A stretch of DNA of 64,000 nucleotides from contig CALJSB010000041.1 in assembly GCA_937976305.1 (NCBI GenBank), forward strand, positions 16,150 to 80,149, read 5' to 3'. Below are positions 2,963 through 11,125 of the stretch, piece after piece; position 1 is the stretch's first letter, and each line of letters starts with the position of its first letter. The translations under genes were made by a program, and so were the position numbers. Source of the stretch: an uncultured Acidimicrobiales bacterium. Its GTDB lineage: Bacteria; Actinomycetota; Acidimicrobiia; Acidimicrobiales; SZUA-35. The notes under the pieces are model-generated. The model saw only the letters and a program-made list of their open reading frames with translations. It was not told the DNA's origin and ran no database searches.

Positions 2963-3058
2963 AGATCCTCAACGATTTTGTTGAGGGGCCGACACGAGTA
3001 GGGCAAACGGCCCATGCGACGCGTGCGAGCCCCAACTCGTTCAGGCCGTGATTTCACG

Positions 3059-3664
3059 ATGTTCTCCCCACCGCTTTCCTTCTCCCCCCGTCGCCCACCG
3101 AGGATTCGAAGAACTCCGATGTTCTTCGCGGTGTTTGCAGTCGTCGTCGGAGCCTGCTCCCCTGTGCCGACCGCGGCGCCAGCGACGCCGGACGATGCGG
3201 TCGCCGCCTTCGCCGCCGATGGTCATTCCGAGGACGTTGCCGAGTGCATCGTGGGCCTCGTCTCAGGGCGCATTGACCCTGCTGCGCTCGTCGGCGACGT
3301 TCAGCTGACCGAGGCCGAAGAGTTGGCGCTCGACGAGGCAACCACGAACTGCGAGTTGGCCTCGGAGTTGCTCTCAAGCGATCCCGAGCCGCCGACCGAC
3401 CTGGCTTTTGACGCCGAGCCCCGTGACTACGGCGACGATGCGGCGCTCGACCGTCTGTGGGACGCTTGCGAAGGCGGACTCGGTGAGGCGTGTGACGAGC
3501 TGTGGGCCGAAGCTCCGGTTGGTAGCAACTACGAGCGTTTCGGCGTGACCTGCGGCGAGCGATTCGATGTTCTCAACTGCACTGCTGACATGGACGAGTC
3601 GGATGATGAGTCGAGTGATGCTGACGAGTCGGATGACGATGATGCAGAGGCGAGCGGTTCCTGA
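3059..3664 (+). CDS. Hypothetical lipoprotein with Cys-containing helical domain
   Basis: Arg-rich n-region, hydrophobic stretch and VVGA|C lipobox. Motif YGDDAALDRLWDACEGGLGEACDELWAEAPVGSNYERFGVTCG and an acidic tail. Alternative start at 3119. Confidence 0.7.
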   Translation: MFSPPLSFSPRRPPRIRRTPMFFAVFAVVVGACSPVPTAAPATPDDAVAAFAADGHSEDVAECIVGLVSGRIDPAALVGDVQLTEAEELALDEATTNCELASELLSSDPEPPTDLAFDAEPRDYGDDAALDRLWDACEGGLGEACDELWAEAPVGSNYERFGVTCGERFDVLNCTADMDESDDESSDADESDDDDAEASGS

Positions 3665-3676
3665 GCCCAGCAGGGG

Positions 3677-4570
3677 TTACAGGTTCGGCCAGCGTTTCGC
3701 CGACGGTGATTGACGCTTTTCACTCGGACTCGGGCCGAGCGCCCAACGGCGACGCCATGCGCCCCCGTCTGGCCCGTGCAGATCTGGTGTCGTGCCGGCG
3801 TGAGCCCGCTTTCTTGCCTCCCACCAGCCCGAGCCGAACTCGTCGGCCAACTCGTTGATCTTGGATTCGATGCGCTCGGCAAAGGTGCGGGCATCTTCAC
3901 CATCGGCTGGTTCGAGGGGCTGGCCGAACACCACCGCACAGCGAGCGCGCGTTGGCCAGTTCTTCCCCTTGGGCAGAATGCGACCGGTCCCATCGATGTA
4001 GGTCGGAATGACCGAGATGTTGGTTCGCTTGGCGACGAAGGCCGCTCCAGGGCGGTGCTTGCGAGTCCAACCATCGGGGCTGCGGCCACCCTCAGGGAAG
4101 ATCAGAAGGTTGTCGCCCCGCTTGATCGCCTTCTCGGCGTTGCGTATCGACAGCTTCGAGAGCTTGGTGCGCTCGATCGGAATTGCCCCGATGAAGAGCG
4201 CCGAGAGCGCGCCAGCCCAGCGGCTCTTGAAGAAGTAGTCGGCACCGCCCAGAGGCGCCAGGTCGCGCCGCAAGTGCGCCGGAATCGTGGCCAGCAACAG
4301 CGAGGTGTCGGCGTGGCTGTGGTGGTTGGCTGCAAAGATCACGGGGCCCTCGACGTTCTTCAGGCGGTCGGCGCCGACGACGCGCGGCGAGCCGTAGATC
4401 CGAATGGCCGGCTTCATGAAGCCCCACACCGTCATGCGGCGAATCAGCTTCGCAGCTGGGCCTCTCGACCACTCGACGTCGTAGTAGACGCCGGTCTTGG
4501 GTCGCGGGGTTCGCTTCTCGACACCCTTTGGCGTTGACGGGGGATCGGCGATGAACCTCAGCCAGCTCAC
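3677..4570 (-). CDS. Lysophospholipid/glycerolipid acyltransferase (PlsC-like)
   Basis: NHHSHAD (HxxxxD) motif, FPEGGRS motif, and GAAFVAKRTNISVIPTYI. Confidence 0.93.
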   Translation of the reverse strand: MSWLRFIADPPSTPKGVEKRTPRPKTGVYYDVEWSRGPAAKLIRRMTVWGFMKPAIRIYGSPRVVGADRLKNVEGPVIFAANHHSHADTSLLLATIPAHLRRDLAPLGGADYFFKSRWAGALSALFIGAIPIERTKLSKLSIRNAEKAIKRGDNLLIFPEGGRSPDGWTRKHRPGAAFVAKRTNISVIPTYIDGTGRILPKGKNWPTRARCAVVFGQPLEPADGEDARTFAERIESKINELADEFGSGWWEARKRAHAGTTPDLHGPDGGAWRRRWALGPSPSEKRQSPSAKRWPNL

Positions 4571-4685
4571 AGCTCACCCCTCTCTTCGTTCGGGGTGTTC
4601 TGTGAGCTGATGATTCCCTTTGGGGAGCGTTGCACGCAGCTCGTCACAGCTCACCCCTCTCTTCGTTCGGGGTGTTCTGTGAGCT
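4567..4685. repeat. Two identical 42-bp palindromic direct repeats with a 35-bp spacer
   Basis: TCACAGCTCACCCCTCTCTTCGTTCGGGGTGTTCTGTGAGCT at 4567-4608 and 4644-4685. Internal CACCCC/GGGGTG hairpin. Confidence 0.95.
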
Positions 4686-6316
4686 CACGTCACGTCCGCC
4701 ATGAGGATCGGTGGGTTGTGCAGGTGAGTGATCGTTGGCTGCGGGCCGACCACGTCCTCGGCCATCTCGAGCGCATCTGACAGGGTCGAGGCCGGCTTGA
4801 ATCCAAGCCGCCTGACTGCTTTGTTGTCGCCCCCAACCACGATGACACCTCCCAGATGCTGCAACGCGTGACTGCACCAATACCACATGTAGAACGGATG
4901 AACCCCGTGGTAGGCGTAACTCGTCCGGTAGAGGTGGCGGTACCACTCGTCTTCTGCGAACTGCTTTTCGTACTTGTGCTGCATCTCGACCGGGTCGGTG
5001 GTGTCGGCCAAGACTTGCTCGAAGAAGTCGATGTAGCTCGGGTGGTGGACGGGGTGGAACTCCCAGGGCGTCGGGTGGCTCATGATCAGCACACCACCTT
5101 CACGCACGACCGGCTTGCCCCGATACAGATTGAAGAAGTAGCCGAGCCCCTGCACGGCAACCAAGATCGGATTCATGATCGAGTTGACGTTGTAGGGGCT
5201 GAGATATGGCAGCCCCATCGTCACGACGTCGGTTTGGCCGGCGACCGGGACCATGTGCTGTTTGTAGACCATCTCGGTGGTCTTCTTGTGGACGGCTTCG
5301 ACCTCACCGGCTTGCACCGACGTGAGCTCATAGGGCGCCTTCCACGAATGGAACGCCTTGCGCTTTTGCGCCGAGGTCATGCGTTTGAGACCGAGTTGCA
5401 TGCCTGAGAAGGCGGCACGATCACGCATCGACCACTCCCATTCGCGCTTCTGCAGCATCGCAAGCGGACCGTCGTAGCCGAAGGTGTTGGTGTTGAGCGT
5501 GGTCTCGATCTGGAAGATGCGAGGGCCGTGCTTCTTGATGACCTCGCCCTGGCGCCAGTTCGACCGGTGAAGTTCGGAGGCGTCTTGGTCCATGAAGCTC
5601 TTGGAGCGGGTCATGGTTTCGGGGTTGTGGTGACTGCGGACGCCGGCATAACCCGACAGGCCCGTCGCCGTGCTTTTCCAGCCGCCGTCCATGCTCACAA
5701 GGTTGATGTTGACGTAGACGACCAGATCGCTCTCGGCTGCTCGGCGTTGCATCTGGACGGTCTCTTTGTGCGGACCGTGACCCTCGTGATCGGTCTCGCC
5801 GAGAATGACCATCTCGTCTGGGTCTTCGGCGTCGAGGTTGTAGAGGAGTCCGTGCGGAGCAAACGCTTCGTACACCCGATCGCCCACGGCTTGCCGAAGC
5901 TCGGGCTCGGTCATGCGGCGGTGGAGCGCAAGCGCAGCGACAATGTGTACGTCGTCGACTCCGGCTGCGGCCGCCATGTCGAGGACTGCTTCGATGATGC
6001 GCTGGCGCACATCGGGTCGCTGCATGGGGGGCAGCGGAAGCGACAGATCGTCGAAGGCAATCGTCAGCTTCATACCGGGCGTGAGCAGCGAGGGCAGCGG
6101 ATCGTCTTCGATCGGGTTGAGCAGCGCTTCGTTGATCTCGTGGTCGGGGTCCTTCAACCCGTTCAGTGGCTCGCTGGGGTAGATGACGCGGCTTCGTCCC
6201 ACGGGGAGCTTTTCCATGCGGAAGCCCTCCCCGTGGTGAAACAGAATGGGTGGTGTTTGCCGGTCGACGTCGAGGGTGAACCCGGGGCGCGGCGAGGGGC
6301 GGTTGGCGGGGGCCAT
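4685..6316 (-). CDS. Lactate-racemase (LarA)/DUF2088-like domain protein
   Basis: 543 aa. Contains LTIAFDDLSLPLP, VAALALHRRMT (the His of the LarA-type GxH motif) and YNLDAED. Its start directly abuts the upstream stop (TAA-ATG). Confidence 0.75.
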   Translation of the reverse strand: MAPANRPSPRPGFTLDVDRQTPPILFHHGEGFRMEKLPVGRSRVIYPSEPLNGLKDPDHEINEALLNPIEDDPLPSLLTPGMKLTIAFDDLSLPLPPMQRPDVRQRIIEAVLDMAAAAGVDDVHIVAALALHRRMTEPELRQAVGDRVYEAFAPHGLLYNLDAEDPDEMVILGETDHEGHGPHKETVQMQRRAAESDLVVYVNINLVSMDGGWKSTATGLSGYAGVRSHHNPETMTRSKSFMDQDASELHRSNWRQGEVIKKHGPRIFQIETTLNTNTFGYDGPLAMLQKREWEWSMRDRAAFSGMQLGLKRMTSAQKRKAFHSWKAPYELTSVQAGEVEAVHKKTTEMVYKQHMVPVAGQTDVVTMGLPYLSPYNVNSIMNPILVAVQGLGYFFNLYRGKPVVREGGVLIMSHPTPWEFHPVHHPSYIDFFEQVLADTTDPVEMQHKYEKQFAEDEWYRHLYRTSYAYHGVHPFYMWYWCSHALQHLGGVIVVGGDNKAVRRLGFKPASTLSDALEMAEDVVGPQPTITHLHNPPILMADVT

Positions 6317-8740
6317 TTACAAGCGACTCTTTCGGAGCGAGGGGAGAGGGCTCAGCGGCAGCACTTTGTCGGTGCCTCCCTGGGCCTTCGACCAGTATTC
6401 GATGAGCCAACCCCGCTTGATCGAAATCGAAGCGAGGCGGGTTTCGGGGTTGACCGCGACGGGGAACCCCACGGCATCGAGAAGCGGAAGATCGGACGAT
6501 GAATCGGCGTAGGCGACCGATTCGGCGAGGTCGAAACCGTGGGTGTCTGCGTAGTCGCGCAGTGCCTGGGCGCGGACTTCGCCAGTTGGCGGGACCGCGA
6601 GAAGTTCTCCGGTATAGCGGCCGCCGATTTCGGACATCTCGGCGCAGATCACATCGTCGAACAGCGGCTTCAGAGGATCGACGACGATATTGAGAGCTCC
6701 GGTGATCAACACCGTGCGATGGCCCAGCTCGCGATGCTTGCGCACTCGCCGTACCGCAGCGGGGAAGGCCTTGGTCAAGATGTGGTCGGCCAACAGCTCT
6801 TGGCCGAGGCGGTCCATCTCGGCCACCGATGCCCCGTCGTAGCGCCGGTAGAAGTGCCGGAGGAAATCCGTGCGGTCTCGACGATCGAGTGCGAGCAGCT
6901 CGGGGCCCTCTTGCAGGGTCTTGAGCGTGAACTTGACCCGATCAGACGGGCCCATGTTCTTGGTGGCGAGCCAGGCGTAGCTGAACACCACGTTGCTGGC
7001 GATGATCGTGTTCTCGAGATCGAAGGCGGCGAGATGGCGCTCTGGTGCGAGCACTCGCTTGCGCAGCCGCGTGGTGCGGGCATCTGGGTCGCTTCGTTCG
7101 GGCTTTGTCTTCACCCGAGCGTGATCGACCACTGATGGCAAATGGATTTCGGTGACGTAGTGATCCCAATCGACGATCGCTGGGTCACAGCCGAAGGTTT
7201 CCTGCGCTGAACTCGTGAGACTGCCGTGCAGGTCGAGCAGATTCTCGACGCCGTAGAGCGCCTCGCACTCGGCGTAGGCGCCGTAGATCTTGACGTAGTC
7301 GCGTGCTCGTTCGACTTGGTCCTTCTTCTCTTCGACGTCGGCGTTGATCATTGCCTGCTTGCCTCGGAGCGGCAGCAGCTTGAGGGTGCGATCGGCCCGG
7401 TCGAGGCTCTTGTGGGCTCGCTCGAGCTGACGTTCAACAGCGCCCCGCCCGGGGAAGGAAAACTGGGCAACGGCGATGGGCTGACCCTTGCGGTCATAGA
7501 GCGGTTTCTCAGTGAACCAGCCGCTCACGAGTTCGACGAGTTGGCGGTACCGCAATGGGTTGCGGGTGCCCGATGCGACCTGGGTAATGGCAACGTTGTC
7601 GGGGTCGGTGACTGGTCCGGCTGCGACATTGATGATGGCCGCAACGACGAGATCGACAGGGATGACGTCGACGACGCCCTCGGGGACACCGGGAAACTCC
7701 TTCAGTAGACCCTGGGCGTAGCTGATGAGGATCGGTTCGGCCATGCGGAAGCCCTTGATCCATCCCGGTCGGGGTTCCATCCACGCCGACTCGATGATCG
7801 AAGGACGCACGATCGACACCGGGACGTTGCCCTTCGACTCGACGAGCGCTCGTTCGCCGAGGGCTTTGGTGTAGGCGTAGGAATCGGGCCAGCCGAGCGA
7901 CGCCGCACGGGCCCGGCCCGCTTCAACGAGTTGCTCGCTGACCCAGCGGACGCGATATTGCTCGGTCTTCGCCGCGAGCAGAGGGGTGCCTGCGGCGCCG
8001 AGTTCGTGGCTCGCTCGCTTACGGAACTCATCGAGGCGGTCGACGGTTCGGCTTTCGGCATCGAAGTCGGCTCGGGTTCTGCGGGCGGCCTTCACCTCCT
8101 GCTTCCAATCGACATCGATGTGGAAGGGAGAGTCCATCAGGAGTTGCTCTGGCGCTGATCCACGACGATTGCCAGCGACGTAGCAGGTGCTGACAGCAAC
8201 GAAGTGAGGCGTGACGCCGAGATCTTGCAGGGTCTCGACGATGCGTGTCGGGCCGAGAAGGTTGACTTCGACAGCGCCATCGAGAGGTGCATCGAAGCTC
8301 ACCGTCGCTGCTGAGTGAATGACGACGTCGCAGCTTGCAAGAGTCGCTCGACCGGCATCGTCGAGGCCGAGGCCGTCGGTGGACACATCACCGGAGATCA
8401 CGGTGACGCGGCGCTCGATGTCTTCCCAGAACGTGTCGGCGCTGCGTGGCGTTTCGCCTCGCTCGGAGATGTTGCGGTGGAACGCATCGTTGCGGAAAAT
8501 CTCTCGCCTGGCTCGTTCGGCCGGGCTGGACTTCTTGCCGGGCCGGACCAGAAGGACGAGCTCGCAATCGGGCACGGATCGAATCAGTCGTTCGACCAGT
8601 GCGGTTCCGAGAAACCCGGTTGAGCCGGTGATGGCAATGCGCTTGCCAGCCAGTGATCCGCAGACGTCGAGCGACCCGCTGGCCGCTGTTGCAGGGGCTG
8701 GTTCATCCGCGCTTTTCGATTCGGCTGTTTCGTCGGCCAT
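6317..8740 (-). CDS. Fatty acyl-CoA reductase (male-sterility NAD_binding_4 + Sterile-like) fused to a HAD-IB phosphatase domain
   Basis: Start MADETAE at 8740 with AGAGGA RBS. ITGSTGFLG Rossmann motif, YAYTK catalytic YxxxK, VRPSIIES, DVIPVDLV. C-terminal HAD motifs AFDLENT, LITGA, and AYADSSSDLPLL..VGFPVAVNP. Confidence 0.9.
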   Translation of the reverse strand: MADETAESKSADEPAPATAASGSLDVCGSLAGKRIAITGSTGFLGTALVERLIRSVPDCELVLLVRPGKKSSPAERARREIFRNDAFHRNISERGETPRSADTFWEDIERRVTVISGDVSTDGLGLDDAGRATLASCDVVIHSAATVSFDAPLDGAVEVNLLGPTRIVETLQDLGVTPHFVAVSTCYVAGNRRGSAPEQLLMDSPFHIDVDWKQEVKAARRTRADFDAESRTVDRLDEFRKRASHELGAAGTPLLAAKTEQYRVRWVSEQLVEAGRARAASLGWPDSYAYTKALGERALVESKGNVPVSIVRPSIIESAWMEPRPGWIKGFRMAEPILISYAQGLLKEFPGVPEGVVDVIPVDLVVAAIINVAAGPVTDPDNVAITQVASGTRNPLRYRQLVELVSGWFTEKPLYDRKGQPIAVAQFSFPGRGAVERQLERAHKSLDRADRTLKLLPLRGKQAMINADVEEKKDQVERARDYVKIYGAYAECEALYGVENLLDLHGSLTSSAQETFGCDPAIVDWDHYVTEIHLPSVVDHARVKTKPERSDPDARTTRLRKRVLAPERHLAAFDLENTIIASNVVFSYAWLATKNMGPSDRVKFTLKTLQEGPELLALDRRDRTDFLRHFYRRYDGASVAEMDRLGQELLADHILTKAFPAAVRRVRKHRELGHRTVLITGALNIVVDPLKPLFDDVICAEMSEIGGRYTGELLAVPPTGEVRAQALRDYADTHGFDLAESVAYADSSSDLPLLDAVGFPVAVNPETRLASISIKRGWLIEYWSKAQGGTDKVLPLSPLPSLRKSRL

Positions 8741-8748
8741 GCGTCCTC

Positions 8749-8760
8749 TACCATTTGGTA
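8749..8760. promoter_or_regulatory. Putative TetR operator palindrome
   Basis: TACCA-TT-TGGTA fills most of the 21-bp gap between the divergent reductase and TetR start codons. Confidence 0.55.
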
Positions 8761-8761
8761 A

Positions 8762-9355
8762 GTGAACACCAAGTCTAGGGTGGTCGAGGCCGCTTCCTCC
8801 GCATTCGCAGAACGAGGTTTTGCCGGTACCTCGCTCGACGACTTGGCCCGAATCGTCGGCCTCACCAAGCAATCAATCCTCTACCACTTTGGCTCAAAGG
8901 ACGGCCTTCTAGAGGCCGTCCTCACCCATGGCGCCAGTGAGTTGGTCGACGTGTTGGAAGCCGCGGCGGCCGAAGCACCGGCCGGCTGGCCCCGCGTCGA
9001 GGCGGTGGTGCGTGCATCGTTCGGGCTTGCGGTCAGCCAGCCCGAACTCGTTGGCTTGCTTCGCGAAGTGAGCCGGCTCGGGCCACCACGCTCTGATGTG
9101 GTCGTTCACCGGCTCACGCCCCTGATCGATCGGGCGCTCGCGGGTCTTGAGGCGGGGATGGATGCGGGTCTGTTTCGGCGGTCCGATCCGAGGATCTTGT
9201 TGGCATCGGTGTACGGCGCAGTCACCGGTGTGGTGACGGATGCCGGTGCGCTCGGAGCCGTTGGTCTCGAGCTCGATCTGCGCGTTGCAGTTCGGCTGCG
9301 GCGCACGGTGCTCGACTTCCTGCGGGTCGCTGTTGCCATGGAGCCGCACGAGTAG
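8762..9355 (+). CDS. TetR/AcrR family transcriptional regulator
   Basis: N-terminal HTH: AASSAFAERGFAGTSLDDLARIVGLTKQSILYHFGSK. Confidence 0.95.
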   Translation: MNTKSRVVEAASSAFAERGFAGTSLDDLARIVGLTKQSILYHFGSKDGLLEAVLTHGASELVDVLEAAAAEAPAGWPRVEAVVRASFGLAVSQPELVGLLREVSRLGPPRSDVVVHRLTPLIDRALAGLEAGMDAGLFRRSDPRILLASVYGAVTGVVTDAGALGAVGLELDLRVAVRLRRTVLDFLRVAVAMEPHE

Positions 9356-9435: not shown

Positions 9436-10245
9436 GTGACGGACGTCGGGGAGATTGTCGGGGAAGGCCGAACATCGACCGTTCGCGCCTACGGCAACGA
9501 CTCGGTCATCAAGATCCCGAAGGACCACGTTCCCGATTCGTGGATCGGACTCGAGGCCAGCTTCACCAATGCGGTCCGCTCCGTCGGAGCGCCGGCACCC
9601 GAAGTGCGAGACGTCGTCGAAGTCGGTGGCCGTCCATCCGTCGTGTTCGAGCGCATCAACGGAACGCTGATGTGGGAAGCCATTCGAGCCGAGCCCGAGA
9701 CTTGTGACTCACACATCGCCGATTTGGTCGACCTCCAGCGAGGCATCCACGAGCTCTCGCTTCCACACGACGTTCCCGACCTGGTGACCCGCATGCAGTC
9801 GAAAGCATCAGCAGTGAGTGCGCTTTCGGTGAGTGAACGCGTTGATGCTCGCGACCTGATCGCCAGCCTGCCCCGCGGAGCGGGCGTGCTGCATGGCGAT
9901 CTGCATCCGGGCAACGTCATCATCGCCGACTCCGGTCTGGTGGCCATCGATTGGTTCGACGTCTCGATCGGACATCCGCTGGCAGATGTCTTGAGATCAA
10001 CGCTGCTGATGCGTCCGCTTGCTGGCGAGACGTCGCCTGTTCACCTGCCCGGGGCTGACAAGTCGACGCTCAGCCGTTTGCAGGAGCGCTACATCGAGTT
10101 GTTCAGCGACGTCCTCGACACTGAAACCACGAGCTGGACCGCAGCGGTCGCGGTGAGCCGTCTCGCGGAGTCTGCTGACCCGGACGACAACGACCTCTGG
10201 GAGCGTTGGCGGGCCCGGCCCGAGCTGATCGAACAGTCCCGATAA
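9436..10245 (+). CDS. Aminoglycoside phosphotransferase/choline kinase family protein
   Basis: GEGRTSTV Gly-loop, VIK, HGDLHPGNV catalytic loop, AIDW metal-binding motif. Confidence 0.9.
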   Translation: MTDVGEIVGEGRTSTVRAYGNDSVIKIPKDHVPDSWIGLEASFTNAVRSVGAPAPEVRDVVEVGGRPSVVFERINGTLMWEAIRAEPETCDSHIADLVDLQRGIHELSLPHDVPDLVTRMQSKASAVSALSVSERVDARDLIASLPRGAGVLHGDLHPGNVIIADSGLVAIDWFDVSIGHPLADVLRSTLLMRPLAGETSPVHLPGADKSTLSRLQERYIELFSDVLDTETTSWTAAVAVSRLAESADPDDNDLWERWRARPELIEQSR

Positions 10246-10324
10246 CTGAGAGTTTCGCTCACCGAACAGTCCCGCTCGCCGACAGTCCCGGTCACCGATC
10301 GCGAGCTCGTTGGCCGATCGTGGG

Positions 10325-11125
10325 TCAGCTGATCGAGCCGACCAGTTGGCGCAGCTCGTCGAAGATGGCGGGGGTTGCAGCAATGTCGAGGTGGAGCTCG
10401 TTGTCCGAGGGCGGCTCGACGATGGCGCCCGCTCGCTGTGCGATCAGGTTGCCGGCGGCGTAGTCGTAGATCTTTGTGTCTTGTTCGTAGTAGCCGTCGA
10501 GCCGCCCCGCTGCCACCCAACACAGATTGAGGGCCGCCGACCCCATGCACCGAATGTCGCGACACTTCGGAAGCATGCGTCCAACGGTTGCTGCCTGCTG
10601 GGCTCGTCGTTCTGCGTCGTAGCTGAACCCGGTGCCAACAAGAGACTGGGGGAGTCGGTCCTTCCCGCTCACCGTAATGACGCGGCCGTCGAGCTTGGCC
10701 TCGGTGTCGCGACTGGCCGAGAACACCTCGCCCCGCAACACATCAGCGACGGCTCCTGCGATCACCACGTCATCGACCGTCGCCGCAATGCTCACCCCGA
10801 CGACGGGAAGGTCGTAGAGAAAGTTGACCGTGCCGTCGATGGGGTCGACGATCCACTCGATGCCGTTGTTCCCGCCGGCAGAAGGCAGCTCCTCACCTTG
10901 GATTCGCGAGCCCGGCGCTCGTTCGGTGAGCTCTCGGCGAATGAGCCGCTCGGAATCGATGTCGGTTTCAGTGACGACGTCGGTTGGCGAGCTCTTGGTG
11001 CGCGACGTTCGGGCCGCACCGGTGTGGGTGCGGACGAAGGAAGCGCTGAGCCTCACCACCTCAGCGGCGACGAGTTCGAGGTGATGGGCAGGCGATGGAT
11101 AGGCCTCACCGCTGGCTGCTGTCAC
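10325..11125 (-). CDS. Inositol monophosphatase family protein (SuhB-like)
   Basis: DVVTETD, GEE, WIVDPIDGTVNF, GSAALNLCWVAAGRLDGY..YDYAAG. Probable GTG start at 11125, 4 nt after the DeoR stop. Confidence 0.93.
   Translation of the reverse strand: MTAASGEAYPSPAHHLELVAAEVVRLSASFVRTHTGAARTSRTKSSPTDVVTETDIDSERLIRRELTERAPGSRIQGEELPSAGGNNGIEWIVDPIDGTVNFLYDLPVVGVSIAATVDDVVIAGAVADVLRGEVFSASRDTEAKLDGRVITVSGKDRLPQSLVGTGFSYDAERRAQQAATVGRMLPKCRDIRCMGSAALNLCWVAAGRLDGYYEQDTKIYDYAAGNLIAQRAGAIVEPPSDNELHLDIAATPAIFDELRQLVGSIS

Follow-up and report, generated by a model that had tools for sequence, protein, structure and literature searches.

In the elb cluster of Myxococcus xanthus, elbD (MXAN_1528) is flanked by elbC, whose function is given as "unknown," and by elbE, the gene for a short-chain dehydrogenase/reductase (SDR); elbB of the same cluster encodes a HAD phosphohydrolase (PMC9131029). 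Insertions in elbD and elbE reduce the alkyl and vinyl ether lipids of this organism, and the ether-forming step of the Elb route is unexplained (PMC9131029). M. xanthus also has a second ether operon (MXAN_1676-1674), which encodes AGPS, a protein combining a fatty acyl-CoA reductase (FAR) with an acyltransferase, and an SDR (PMC9131029). In a separate literature, that on homologs of the lactate racemase LarA, Groups 14 and 15 are both labeled as having an unknown function (Desguin 2020); Dataset S2 of that study places Afer_1430 from Acidimicrobium ferrooxidans, YM304_22240 from Ilumatobacter, and Franean1_4168 from Frankia in Group 14, and proteins of Myxococcota, including MXAN_1529, in Group 15. 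Here we analyze a 64,000-nucleotide stretch of DNA (the window) from contig CALJSB010000041.1 (C41) of an uncultured Acidimicrobiales bacterium, whose genome assembly comprises 4.42 Mb in 160 contigs and is 91.6% complete. The window contains an operon that encodes a FAR-HAD fusion protein, a LarA homolog, and a PlsC-type acyltransferase.

We propose that this operon is a reduced and re-partitioned actinobacterial version of the elb cluster, in which the LarA homolog would act as a "hidden-redox" enzyme, and that its product would be a glycerolipid derived from a fatty alcohol, most likely a 1-O-alkyl ether; our confidence in this proposal is a little better than even. Both the ether-lipid product and the acyl/alkyl exchange by the LarA homolog are what we infer from sequence and from analogy with described systems.

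The operon and its relation to the elb cluster

The open reading frames and their translations place three genes on the minus strand in the order FAR-HAD fusion, LarA homolog, acyltransferase, with a tetR gene divergent from them. An earlier note on this DNA, made from the letters alone, had described the same set, namely, three linked minus-strand genes for an acyl reductase-HAD protein, a 543-aa LarA-like protein, and a PlsC-like protein, together with a TetR regulator; every one of these open reading frames is present at its coordinates, and matches to Pfam and NCBIfam models agree with the assignments. The LarA homolog (543 aa; positions 4685..6316, minus strand) matches Lar_N (PF09861) at 1.5e-30 and the NCBIfam model of the LarAH14/15/16 family (NF052592) at 852 bits, with a curated cutoff of 740. 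The FAR-HAD open frame (851 aa; 6317..8872, minus strand) contains a fatty acyl reductase domain (7145..8632, minus strand), comprising NAD_binding_4 (PF07993, 1.8e-56) and a C-terminal Sterile domain (PF03015) and displaying the motifs GSTGFLG and YAYTK, and, in its C-terminal part, a HAD-IB phosphatase domain (6437..7033, minus strand) detected by PF12710 (1e-28) and by TIGR01490 (HAD-IB; 111.7 bits, above the cutoff). The HAD nucleophile D618 (motif I, D618-L-E-N-T) is invariant, the D+2 position is occupied by E or D, and conservation extends to the TGA and DSxSD motifs. The acyltransferase, which is of the PlsC/GNPAT type (297 aa; 3677..4570, minus strand), matches PF01553 at 9e-19 and contains both the HX4D (HHSHAD) and the FPEGGRS motifs.

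Because MXAN_1529 adjoins elbD, which elbC and elbE flank, MXAN_1529 is ElbC, and ElbC is hence a LarA homolog of the nickel-pincer type. The LarA homolog from the window shares 50% identity with MXAN_1529 across 390 residues (E 5e-133), which by sequence makes it an ortholog-level relative of ElbC. The other parts of the operon match Elb proteins as well. The FAR region, which corresponds to the FAR1-like domain at the N terminus of ElbD, is 28.6% identical to an ElbD-like protein of 1527 aa (its residues 40-639; E 6e-47); the HAD region, the counterpart of ElbB, is 28.5% identical to an ElbB-like HAD protein (E 1e-25); and the acyltransferase, the counterpart of the C-terminal domain of ElbD, is 29% identical to residues 1264-1441 of the ElbD-like protein (E 4e-20). 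The comparison with elb proteins that the earlier note had proposed thus finds homology throughout, and its suggestion that elb clusters encode HAD and DUF2088-type proteins proved correct: ElbB is the former and ElbC, as a member of LarA homolog Group 15, is the latter.

The window therefore has an ElbC-type LarA homolog, an ElbB-type HAD domain (fused to FAR), and the reductase and acyltransferase domains of ElbD. Adenylation and acyl carrier protein (ACP) modules are absent from the operon, as is an oxidoreductase of the NAD-dependent epimerase/dehydratase type, to which ElbE and ElbA belong; a Pfam search identified no AMP-binding or PP-binding domain in the operon proteins or the scanned flanking genes. 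The description of the operon as a "reduced variant" that lacks an adenylation/ACP module was therefore accurate.

A separate route led to the same cluster type. A family member with 36% identity led to 80 loci in Myxococcota (Polyangiaceae, Nannocystaceae, and Haliangium) and in Acidobacteriota subdivision 4 (Pyrinomonadaceae, Blastocatellaceae, and Chloracidobacterium), taxa from which elb clusters are already known. In these loci, a HAD gene is followed by the gene for the Lar_N protein and then by one long gene. At one of these loci (L104), the long gene encodes 1527 aa with NAD_binding_4, AMP-binding, PP-binding, and Acyltransferase domains, and a gene for an NAD-dependent epimerase/dehydratase comes next; this architecture is the published ElbB-ElbC-ElbD-ElbE. 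Our literature search identified no paper that joins "elbC" with "DUF2088" or "lactate racemase," and a preprint on sponge ether lipids reports elb-like clusters in Poribacteria and Acidobacteriota and none in Acidimicrobiia.

Residues and predicted structure of the LarA homolog

Residue equivalences were taken from an alignment of the window protein to Lactiplantibacillus plantarum LarA, in which Arg75, Gln295, and Lys298 are the residues that, we assume, hold the carboxylate of the substrate. The cofactor and catalytic residues of the N-terminal domain are encoded at 5627..6049 (minus strand). D90 corresponds to Asp72, H132 to the first catalytic histidine (His108), K214 to the lysine that tethers the cofactor through a thioamide (Lys184), and H230 to the nickel ligand His200. 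L93 takes the place of Arg75, and N205 that of the second catalytic histidine (His174), a position at which Desguin's alignment has a gap. These equivalences, including Leu93 for Arg75, hold in all 80 of the 80 Acidimicrobiales sequences, and D90, H132, K214, and H230 are also invariant in all sequences from Acidobacteriota and Myxococcota that have the column, that is, across three phyla. Dataset S2 of Desguin (2020) has the same residue pattern for Groups 14 and 15, and the equivalents of Gln295 and Lys298 in Group 14 are either absent or Asn. As judged from these alignments, the residues that would hold the nickel-pincer nucleotide (NPN; equivalents of Asp72, Lys184, and His200) and one catalytic histidine are kept, and the second histidine and the three tabulated substrate-site positions are lost. 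The pair of catalytic histidines required for racemization is thus incomplete (H132 is kept and His174 is replaced), and the Arg75/Gln295/Lys298 substrate site is missing. The inactivity of the Frankia member (LarAH14) in all seven NPN-based assays likewise speaks against a hydroxy-acid racemase.

Alongside its Lar_N domain, the protein has the two-domain LarA fold. An AlphaFold model built from a 36-sequence alignment has a predicted local distance difference test (pLDDT) score of 92.4 and a predicted template modeling (pTM) score of 0.91, and its top 19 matches in the PDB are all LarA-family proteins. The best matches are the single-histidine LarA homologs of Group 17, 9Q3K and 9Q3J (TM 0.75/0.85), one of which was solved with covalent NPN; the function of both is unassigned (PMC12611868).

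NCBIfam names the NF052592 family "hydroxyacid isomerase," which is probably too specific for LarAH14/15/16. This name bears on an alternative in which the operon makes fatty-alcohol or diol lipids without an ether bond (wax-ester-like or acyl-diol lipids), and the LarA homolog is a true epimerase of a 2-hydroxy lipid, acting on a 2-hydroxyacyl chain or on the sn-2 hydroxyl of a lysolipid. Every characterized LarA homolog inverts a 2-hydroxy center, a FAR together with an acyltransferase and a phosphatase would be enough to produce acylated fatty alcohols, and the genome encodes two wax ester synthase/diacylglycerol acyltransferase (WS/DGAT) proteins. However, the second catalytic histidine that inversion needs is absent, the Arg75, Gln295, and Lys298 positions (Desguin Dataset S2) are lost, the WS/DGAT genes are unlinked to the operon, and the homologous elb cluster is genetically tied to ether lipids (PMC9131029). 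We consider this alternative unlikely.

The same residues bear on the possibility that the LarA homolog inverts the glycerol-phosphate backbone (sn-glycerol-3-phosphate to sn-glycerol-1-phosphate and back, or the equivalent in a lysolipid) through an intermediate at the level of dihydroxyacetone phosphate (DHAP), which would give lipids of unusual stereochemistry. Inversion of a secondary alcohol through a ketone is LarA chemistry, a substrate that has no carboxylate would fit the loss of Arg75, Gln295, and Lys298, and TG-1 of M. xanthus is given as "rac" in a figure legend (PMC9131029). On the other hand, proton transfer on two faces requires two acid/base residues, only one histidine is kept, and the carriers have no known lipid of such stereochemistry. 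We regard backbone inversion as very improbable.

Nickel-pincer nucleotide synthesis genes

The earlier note had seen no larB, larC, or larE genes, which holds true for the window but not for the genome, where our search found them on other contigs. The larE (291 bits) and larB (231 bits) genes, both above the cutoff, overlap on the 3.3-kb contig C114 (L001:1489-2998), and larC is split: it starts in the last 180 bases of C114, which encode the first 59 LarC positions, and positions 205-373 are encoded on contig C14:5318-5821. We read this arrangement as a nickel-pincer operon, larE-larB-larC, whose larC gene is interrupted by an assembly gap. A search with TIGR00299 had suggested that larC was absent; this result was rejected after the Pfam search found the split gene on C114 and C14. 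The LarA homolog from the window is the sole Lar_N protein in its own genome, and the same is true of its counterparts in six out of six other larBCE-positive genomes that were checked. Other NPN clients, including enzymes of the aldo-keto-reductase type, are known, and "sole client" therefore means the sole known client.

In a sample of 301 Acidimicrobiia genomes, each at least 90% complete, the LarA homolog was found in 73, always as a single copy, and 70 of these 73 belong to the same order as the window; several small-genome genera lack it. LarC and the LarA homolog occur together in 67 genomes, the LarA homolog alone in 6, LarC alone in 2, and neither in 226 (Fisher p = 3e-57, a value inflated by shared ancestry). 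In other words, 67 of the 69 LarC-positive genomes have the LarA homolog, and 67 of the 73 genomes with the LarA homolog (92%) have LarC; several genera within the same order lack both. These counts indicate that in Acidimicrobiia NPN synthesis is coupled near-exclusively to this LarA homolog. LarC was also found in 10 of the 12 elb-bearing genomes of Myxococcota and Acidobacteriota. In a Pyrinomonadaceae genome (L148), larC (1209770-1210948) lies approximately 16 kb from the elbC-type gene (1227121-1228686).

The coupling has exceptions. LarC is missing from six of the 73 class-sample genomes that have the LarA homolog, and seven closed Acidimicrobiales chromosomes (those behind L030, L031, L039, L043, L048, L052, and L054) have no larB, larC, or larE and keep the operon with the lysine and histidine residues intact. 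Judged from 14 genomes, just half of the carriers had seemed to possess larBCE; this estimate was set aside, because that closed-genome set is biased in lineage and the class sample gives 92%, but the exceptions themselves are real. They favor an alternative in which the LarA homolog works without NPN, as a scaffold, as a lipid-binding subunit, or with another cofactor, and FAR, HAD, and the acyltransferase do all of the chemistry. Such a role would also agree with the loss of the cofactor lysine in the Group 16 relatives (Desguin 2020) and with the fact that the Frankia member (LarAH14) was inactive in all seven of seven NPN-based assays. Yet D90, H132, K214, and H230 are invariant over three phyla, nearly all LarC-positive genomes have the LarA homolog, the latter is the only Lar_N client in larBCE-positive genomes, and its nearest solved relative binds NPN covalently. 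Thus, an NPN-free function appears quite unlikely. The protein called "LarAH15" in a 2024 JBC paper, a gluconate 2-epimerase from Phytophthora, is not a member of the 2020 "Group 15."

Conservation and phylogeny of the operon

The operon is syntenic in approximately 160 loci from Actinomycetota, often with an added gene for a zinc-dependent alcohol dehydrogenase (Zn-ADH). Among 80 Acidimicrobiales loci, the acyltransferase gene follows the LarA gene in 79, the HAD domain precedes it in 79, and the reductase is present in 78, with the few failures located at contig ends; a divergent TetR homolog is present in 56. In 29 of these loci an extra gene lies between the fusion and LarA genes, and it matches the Zn-ADH (ADH_N and ADH_zinc_N) of a locus from an actinomycete outside Acidimicrobiia (L086). 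In 80 further loci from Actinomycetota (Nocardioidaceae, Angustibacter, Aquipuribacter, Streptomyces spp., Frankia, and Nitriliruptorales), the usual arrangement comprises four genes in the order FAR-HAD, Zn-ADH, LarA homolog, acyltransferase, and the acyltransferase gene is directly downstream of the LarA homolog in 78; a TetR or a downstream MarR regulator is found there in place of the divergent TetR. Since the same gene order recurs across Acidimicrobiales and other Actinomycetota, the arrangement is not due to chance. Carriers available in culture include Aquihabitans spp., Ilumatobacter coccineus YM16-304 (YM304_22240), Acidimicrobium ferrooxidans (Afer_1430), Salinilacustrithrix flava, Nocardioides marinquilinus JCM 18459, Angustibacter, and Frankia EAN1pec.

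The lineage of the window has lost the Zn-ADH gene from the operon. An unlinked Zn-ADH gene on contig C7:66608-67771 (L258:7612-8775) encodes a protein that is 55.6% identical to the in-operon ADH of relatives and is, by sequence, likely its ortholog. It is flanked by a QueG-like gene, a GT4 glycosyltransferase gene, and a radical-SAM/SPASM gene. At L086, a gene for a MarR regulator (10300-10812) follows the four-gene operon, which is located beside a ppa-dacB-tilS-hpt block.

A maximum-likelihood tree of the LarA homologs has two clades, each with 100/100 support. The first contains Actinomycetota, with sub-clades of Acidimicrobiia and Actinomycetes, and the window protein belongs to this Group 14 clade. 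The second contains Myxococcota and Acidobacteriota and includes MXAN_1529. This pattern points to long vertical inheritance.

Several unusual sequences were encountered among the family members. P0077 (L090:2400-5243 and L091:784-3627) is a 947-aa protein from marine metagenomes that combines a LarA homolog resembling Groups 14/15 (35% identity) with a chlorophyll a/b-binding domain; an algal origin or an artefact of the gene model may account for it. Two apparent fusions of LarA with an acyltransferase (P0054 and P0058) were set aside: the last ~45 LarA residues are missing, the contigs are cut, and both are probably frameshift artefacts. Long extensions in P0023, P0052, and P0094 contain no Pfam domain.

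Proposed pathway

In the route that we favor, the FAR domain would act directly on acyl-CoA and reduce it to the fatty aldehyde or alcohol, which would make the adenylation/ACP loading module dispensable. The acyltransferase, in a GNPAT-like reaction, would acylate glycerol-3-phosphate or DHAP to give 1-acyl-glycerol-3-phosphate or acyl-DHAP. The LarA homolog, loaded with NPN made by the larE-larB-larC products, would then carry out a hidden-redox cycle in place of a racemization: by temporarily taking the hydride from C2 of the glycerol backbone, it would produce a transient ketone similar to acyl-DHAP. With C1 activated in this way, the acyl group could be exchanged for the fatty alcohol, as in AGPS, and return of the hydride on the same face would yield 1-O-alkyl-glycerol-3-phosphate, from which the HAD domain would remove the phosphate. 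Expression of the operon would be gated by TetR, which presumably senses a lipid ligand.

Three considerations led us to this assignment. A single acid/base histidine suits a cycle that takes place on one face but would not suffice for racemization. That Arg75, Gln295, and Lys298 are lost argues for a substrate other than hydroxy acids. Finally, given that the parallel operon of M. xanthus consists of AGPS, FAR-acyltransferase, and SDR genes, ElbC fills in elb the slot that AGPS fills there. In the AGPS reaction, acyl-DHAP is enolizable, the fatty acid leaves, and the alcohol attacks. Extended beyond the window, this reasoning would give the aerobic, AGPS-independent bacterial pathway, in the form of ElbC and Groups 14/15, the enzyme for ether-bond formation that it has lacked, operating through transient C2 oxidation of an acyl-glycerol phosphate by Lys-tethered NPN, a swap of the acyl group for a fatty alcohol, and return of the hydride on the same face; we offer this broader statement tentatively, as a possibility that is more probably wrong than right.

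The ether bond might also be formed reductively. Here, the LarA homolog would give a hydride to an oxocarbenium or hemiacetal formed from the aldehyde and glycerol, or would reduce the ester stepwise, like Ger/PlsA, with no AGPS-like exchange. In M. xanthus it is i15:0 aldehyde, not the alcohol, that is elbD-dependent (PMC9131029), an unrelated NPN enzyme performs intermolecular hydride shuttling, and the accompanying oxidoreductase (Zn-ADH or the SDR ElbE) could supply or remove reducing equivalents. Against this, there is no evident external hydride donor for a covalently bound cofactor, and all uncertainties of the exchange route apply here too. As a variant of the ether-forming step, reductive etherification of an aldehyde hemiacetal has support comparable to that of the AGPS-like exchange; as an account of the operon in its own right, we rate it as highly unlikely.

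Several observations weigh against an ether-lipid operon built around an acyl/alkyl exchange. To our knowledge, no LarA-family enzyme offers a precedent for the proposed chemistry. In the literature searched, no ether lipid has been reported for Acidimicrobiia or for the other actinobacterial carriers. The two WS/DGAT genes (contigs C44:60061-60888 and C95:6934-7656) could consume the fatty alcohol as wax ester, and the LarC-negative genomes of the class sample and the closed larBCE-negative chromosomes described above count here as well. In M. xanthus, elbC has no clean knockout to date; a polar elbB insertion is partly rescued by elbD alone (PMC9131029), so that both ElbB and ElbC may be non-essential there. 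Pontiella has ElbD homologs, yet it showed no ether lipids.

Regulator, gene boundaries, and neighboring genes

The LarA gene ATG directly abuts the FAR-HAD stop codon, with zero gap, and 114 nt separate the LarA gene from the acyltransferase gene. The FAR-HAD gene probably starts with the ATG at 8740 (6317..8740, minus strand; M45 of the open frame, 807 aa) and not with the TTG at 8872; homology among relatives starts at approximately residue 61 of the open frame. With this start, the overlap with tetR disappears and a 21-nt divergent spacer (8741..8761), read directly from the sequence, remains. The TetR-family regulator (197 aa; 8762..9355, plus strand; TetR_N at 9.5e-14) has an N-terminal helix-turn-helix and is divergent to its putative target operon. 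A simple promoter scan identified no sigma-70-like promoter in the spacer, and no promoter or terminator signal in such scans rose above background.

An APH-family phosphotransferase (kinase) gene (9436..10245, plus strand) begins 80 nt after tetR. It is kept only in the nearest relative (L006), and on account of this limited conservation it is probably not a part of the system. Convergent with the acyltransferase gene is a 216-aa open reading frame (3014..3664, plus strand) that has no Pfam match and is present in just six related loci.

Implications

The elb cluster type is already known and the LarA family is already cataloged. What is new relative to the literature searched is the recognition of ElbC as a LarA homolog of the nickel-pincer type, the compact FAR-HAD/LarA homolog/acyltransferase variant that is widespread in Actinomycetota, and the finding that in Acidimicrobiia NPN synthesis is coupled almost exclusively to the LarA homolog. 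The elb and nickel-pincer literatures have not been joined so far in the papers searched. Once they are joined, the single-histidine LarA homologs gain a concrete class of candidate lipid substrates, the unexplained formation of the ether in the Elb pathway gains a candidate enzyme, and a nickel requirement is predicted for ether-lipid synthesis by the Elb route. If the proposal is true, ElbC and its actinobacterial counterpart would be the first LarA enzymes known to act on lipids and not as racemases, and they would define a nickel-dependent route to ether lipids. A three-gene actinobacterial operon that has no module resembling those of nonribosomal peptide synthetases would be far simpler to reconstitute than ElbD.

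There may also be consequences for biomarker work. Screens that use full-length ElbD in BLAST searches miss the split cluster, and one study with an ElbD-based BLAST scored Microtrichaceae as ElbD-negative. Despite such negative screens, the split cluster is present in approximately three quarters of the Acidimicrobiales genomes that the class sample lists, and these bacteria, which are abundant in soil, marine, and wastewater habitats, may thus produce non-isoprenoid ether lipids that have been overlooked.

Comparison with known systems

The closest described system is elbA-E of M. xanthus (Lorenzen et al. 2014, reviewed in PMC9131029), which shares with the window a HAD protein, a LarA protein, a FAR1-like reductase, and an acyltransferase resembling AGPAT/GNPAT; in both systems the LarA gene lies between the HAD gene and the gene that bears the acyltransferase. 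The two differ in how the activities are partitioned: FAR forms a fusion with HAD in the window, whereas in ElbD it is part of the same protein as the acyltransferase. The adenylation and ACP modules of ElbD and the SDR (ElbA/ElbE) are lacking in the window; its relatives have Zn-ADH where elb has the SDR, and in the window genome that ADH is unlinked. Finally, the window operon is under putative TetR control in a host from Actinomycetota, whereas the host of the M. xanthus elb cluster belongs to Myxococcota.

The AGPS route, known in eukaryotes as GNPAT, FAR1, AGPS, and an acyl/alkyl-DHAP reductase, resembles the proposed pathway in its FAR, GNPAT-like acyltransferase, oxidoreductase, and phosphatase. 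It differs in that the operon contains no AGPS-type flavoenzyme, and the exchange that we propose in its place would be nickel-pincer-based and redox-neutral.

At the level of the LarA homolog itself, the Group 17 proteins 9Q3K and 9Q3J share with the window protein the fold, the lysine tether, the nickel-ligand histidine, the equivalent of Asp72, and the first catalytic histidine, and in both the second histidine is replaced by Asn. However, sequence identity is only approximately 20%, the change of Arg75 to Leu distinguishes the window protein, and its C-terminal domain site differs from that of Group 17, with an invariant His/Trp/Tyr set of its own (H343, H414, H425, H470, H473, and W478-Y479-W480). 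The genomic contexts differ as well: carbohydrate genes surround the Group 17 members, whereas the window homolog is embedded among lipid genes.

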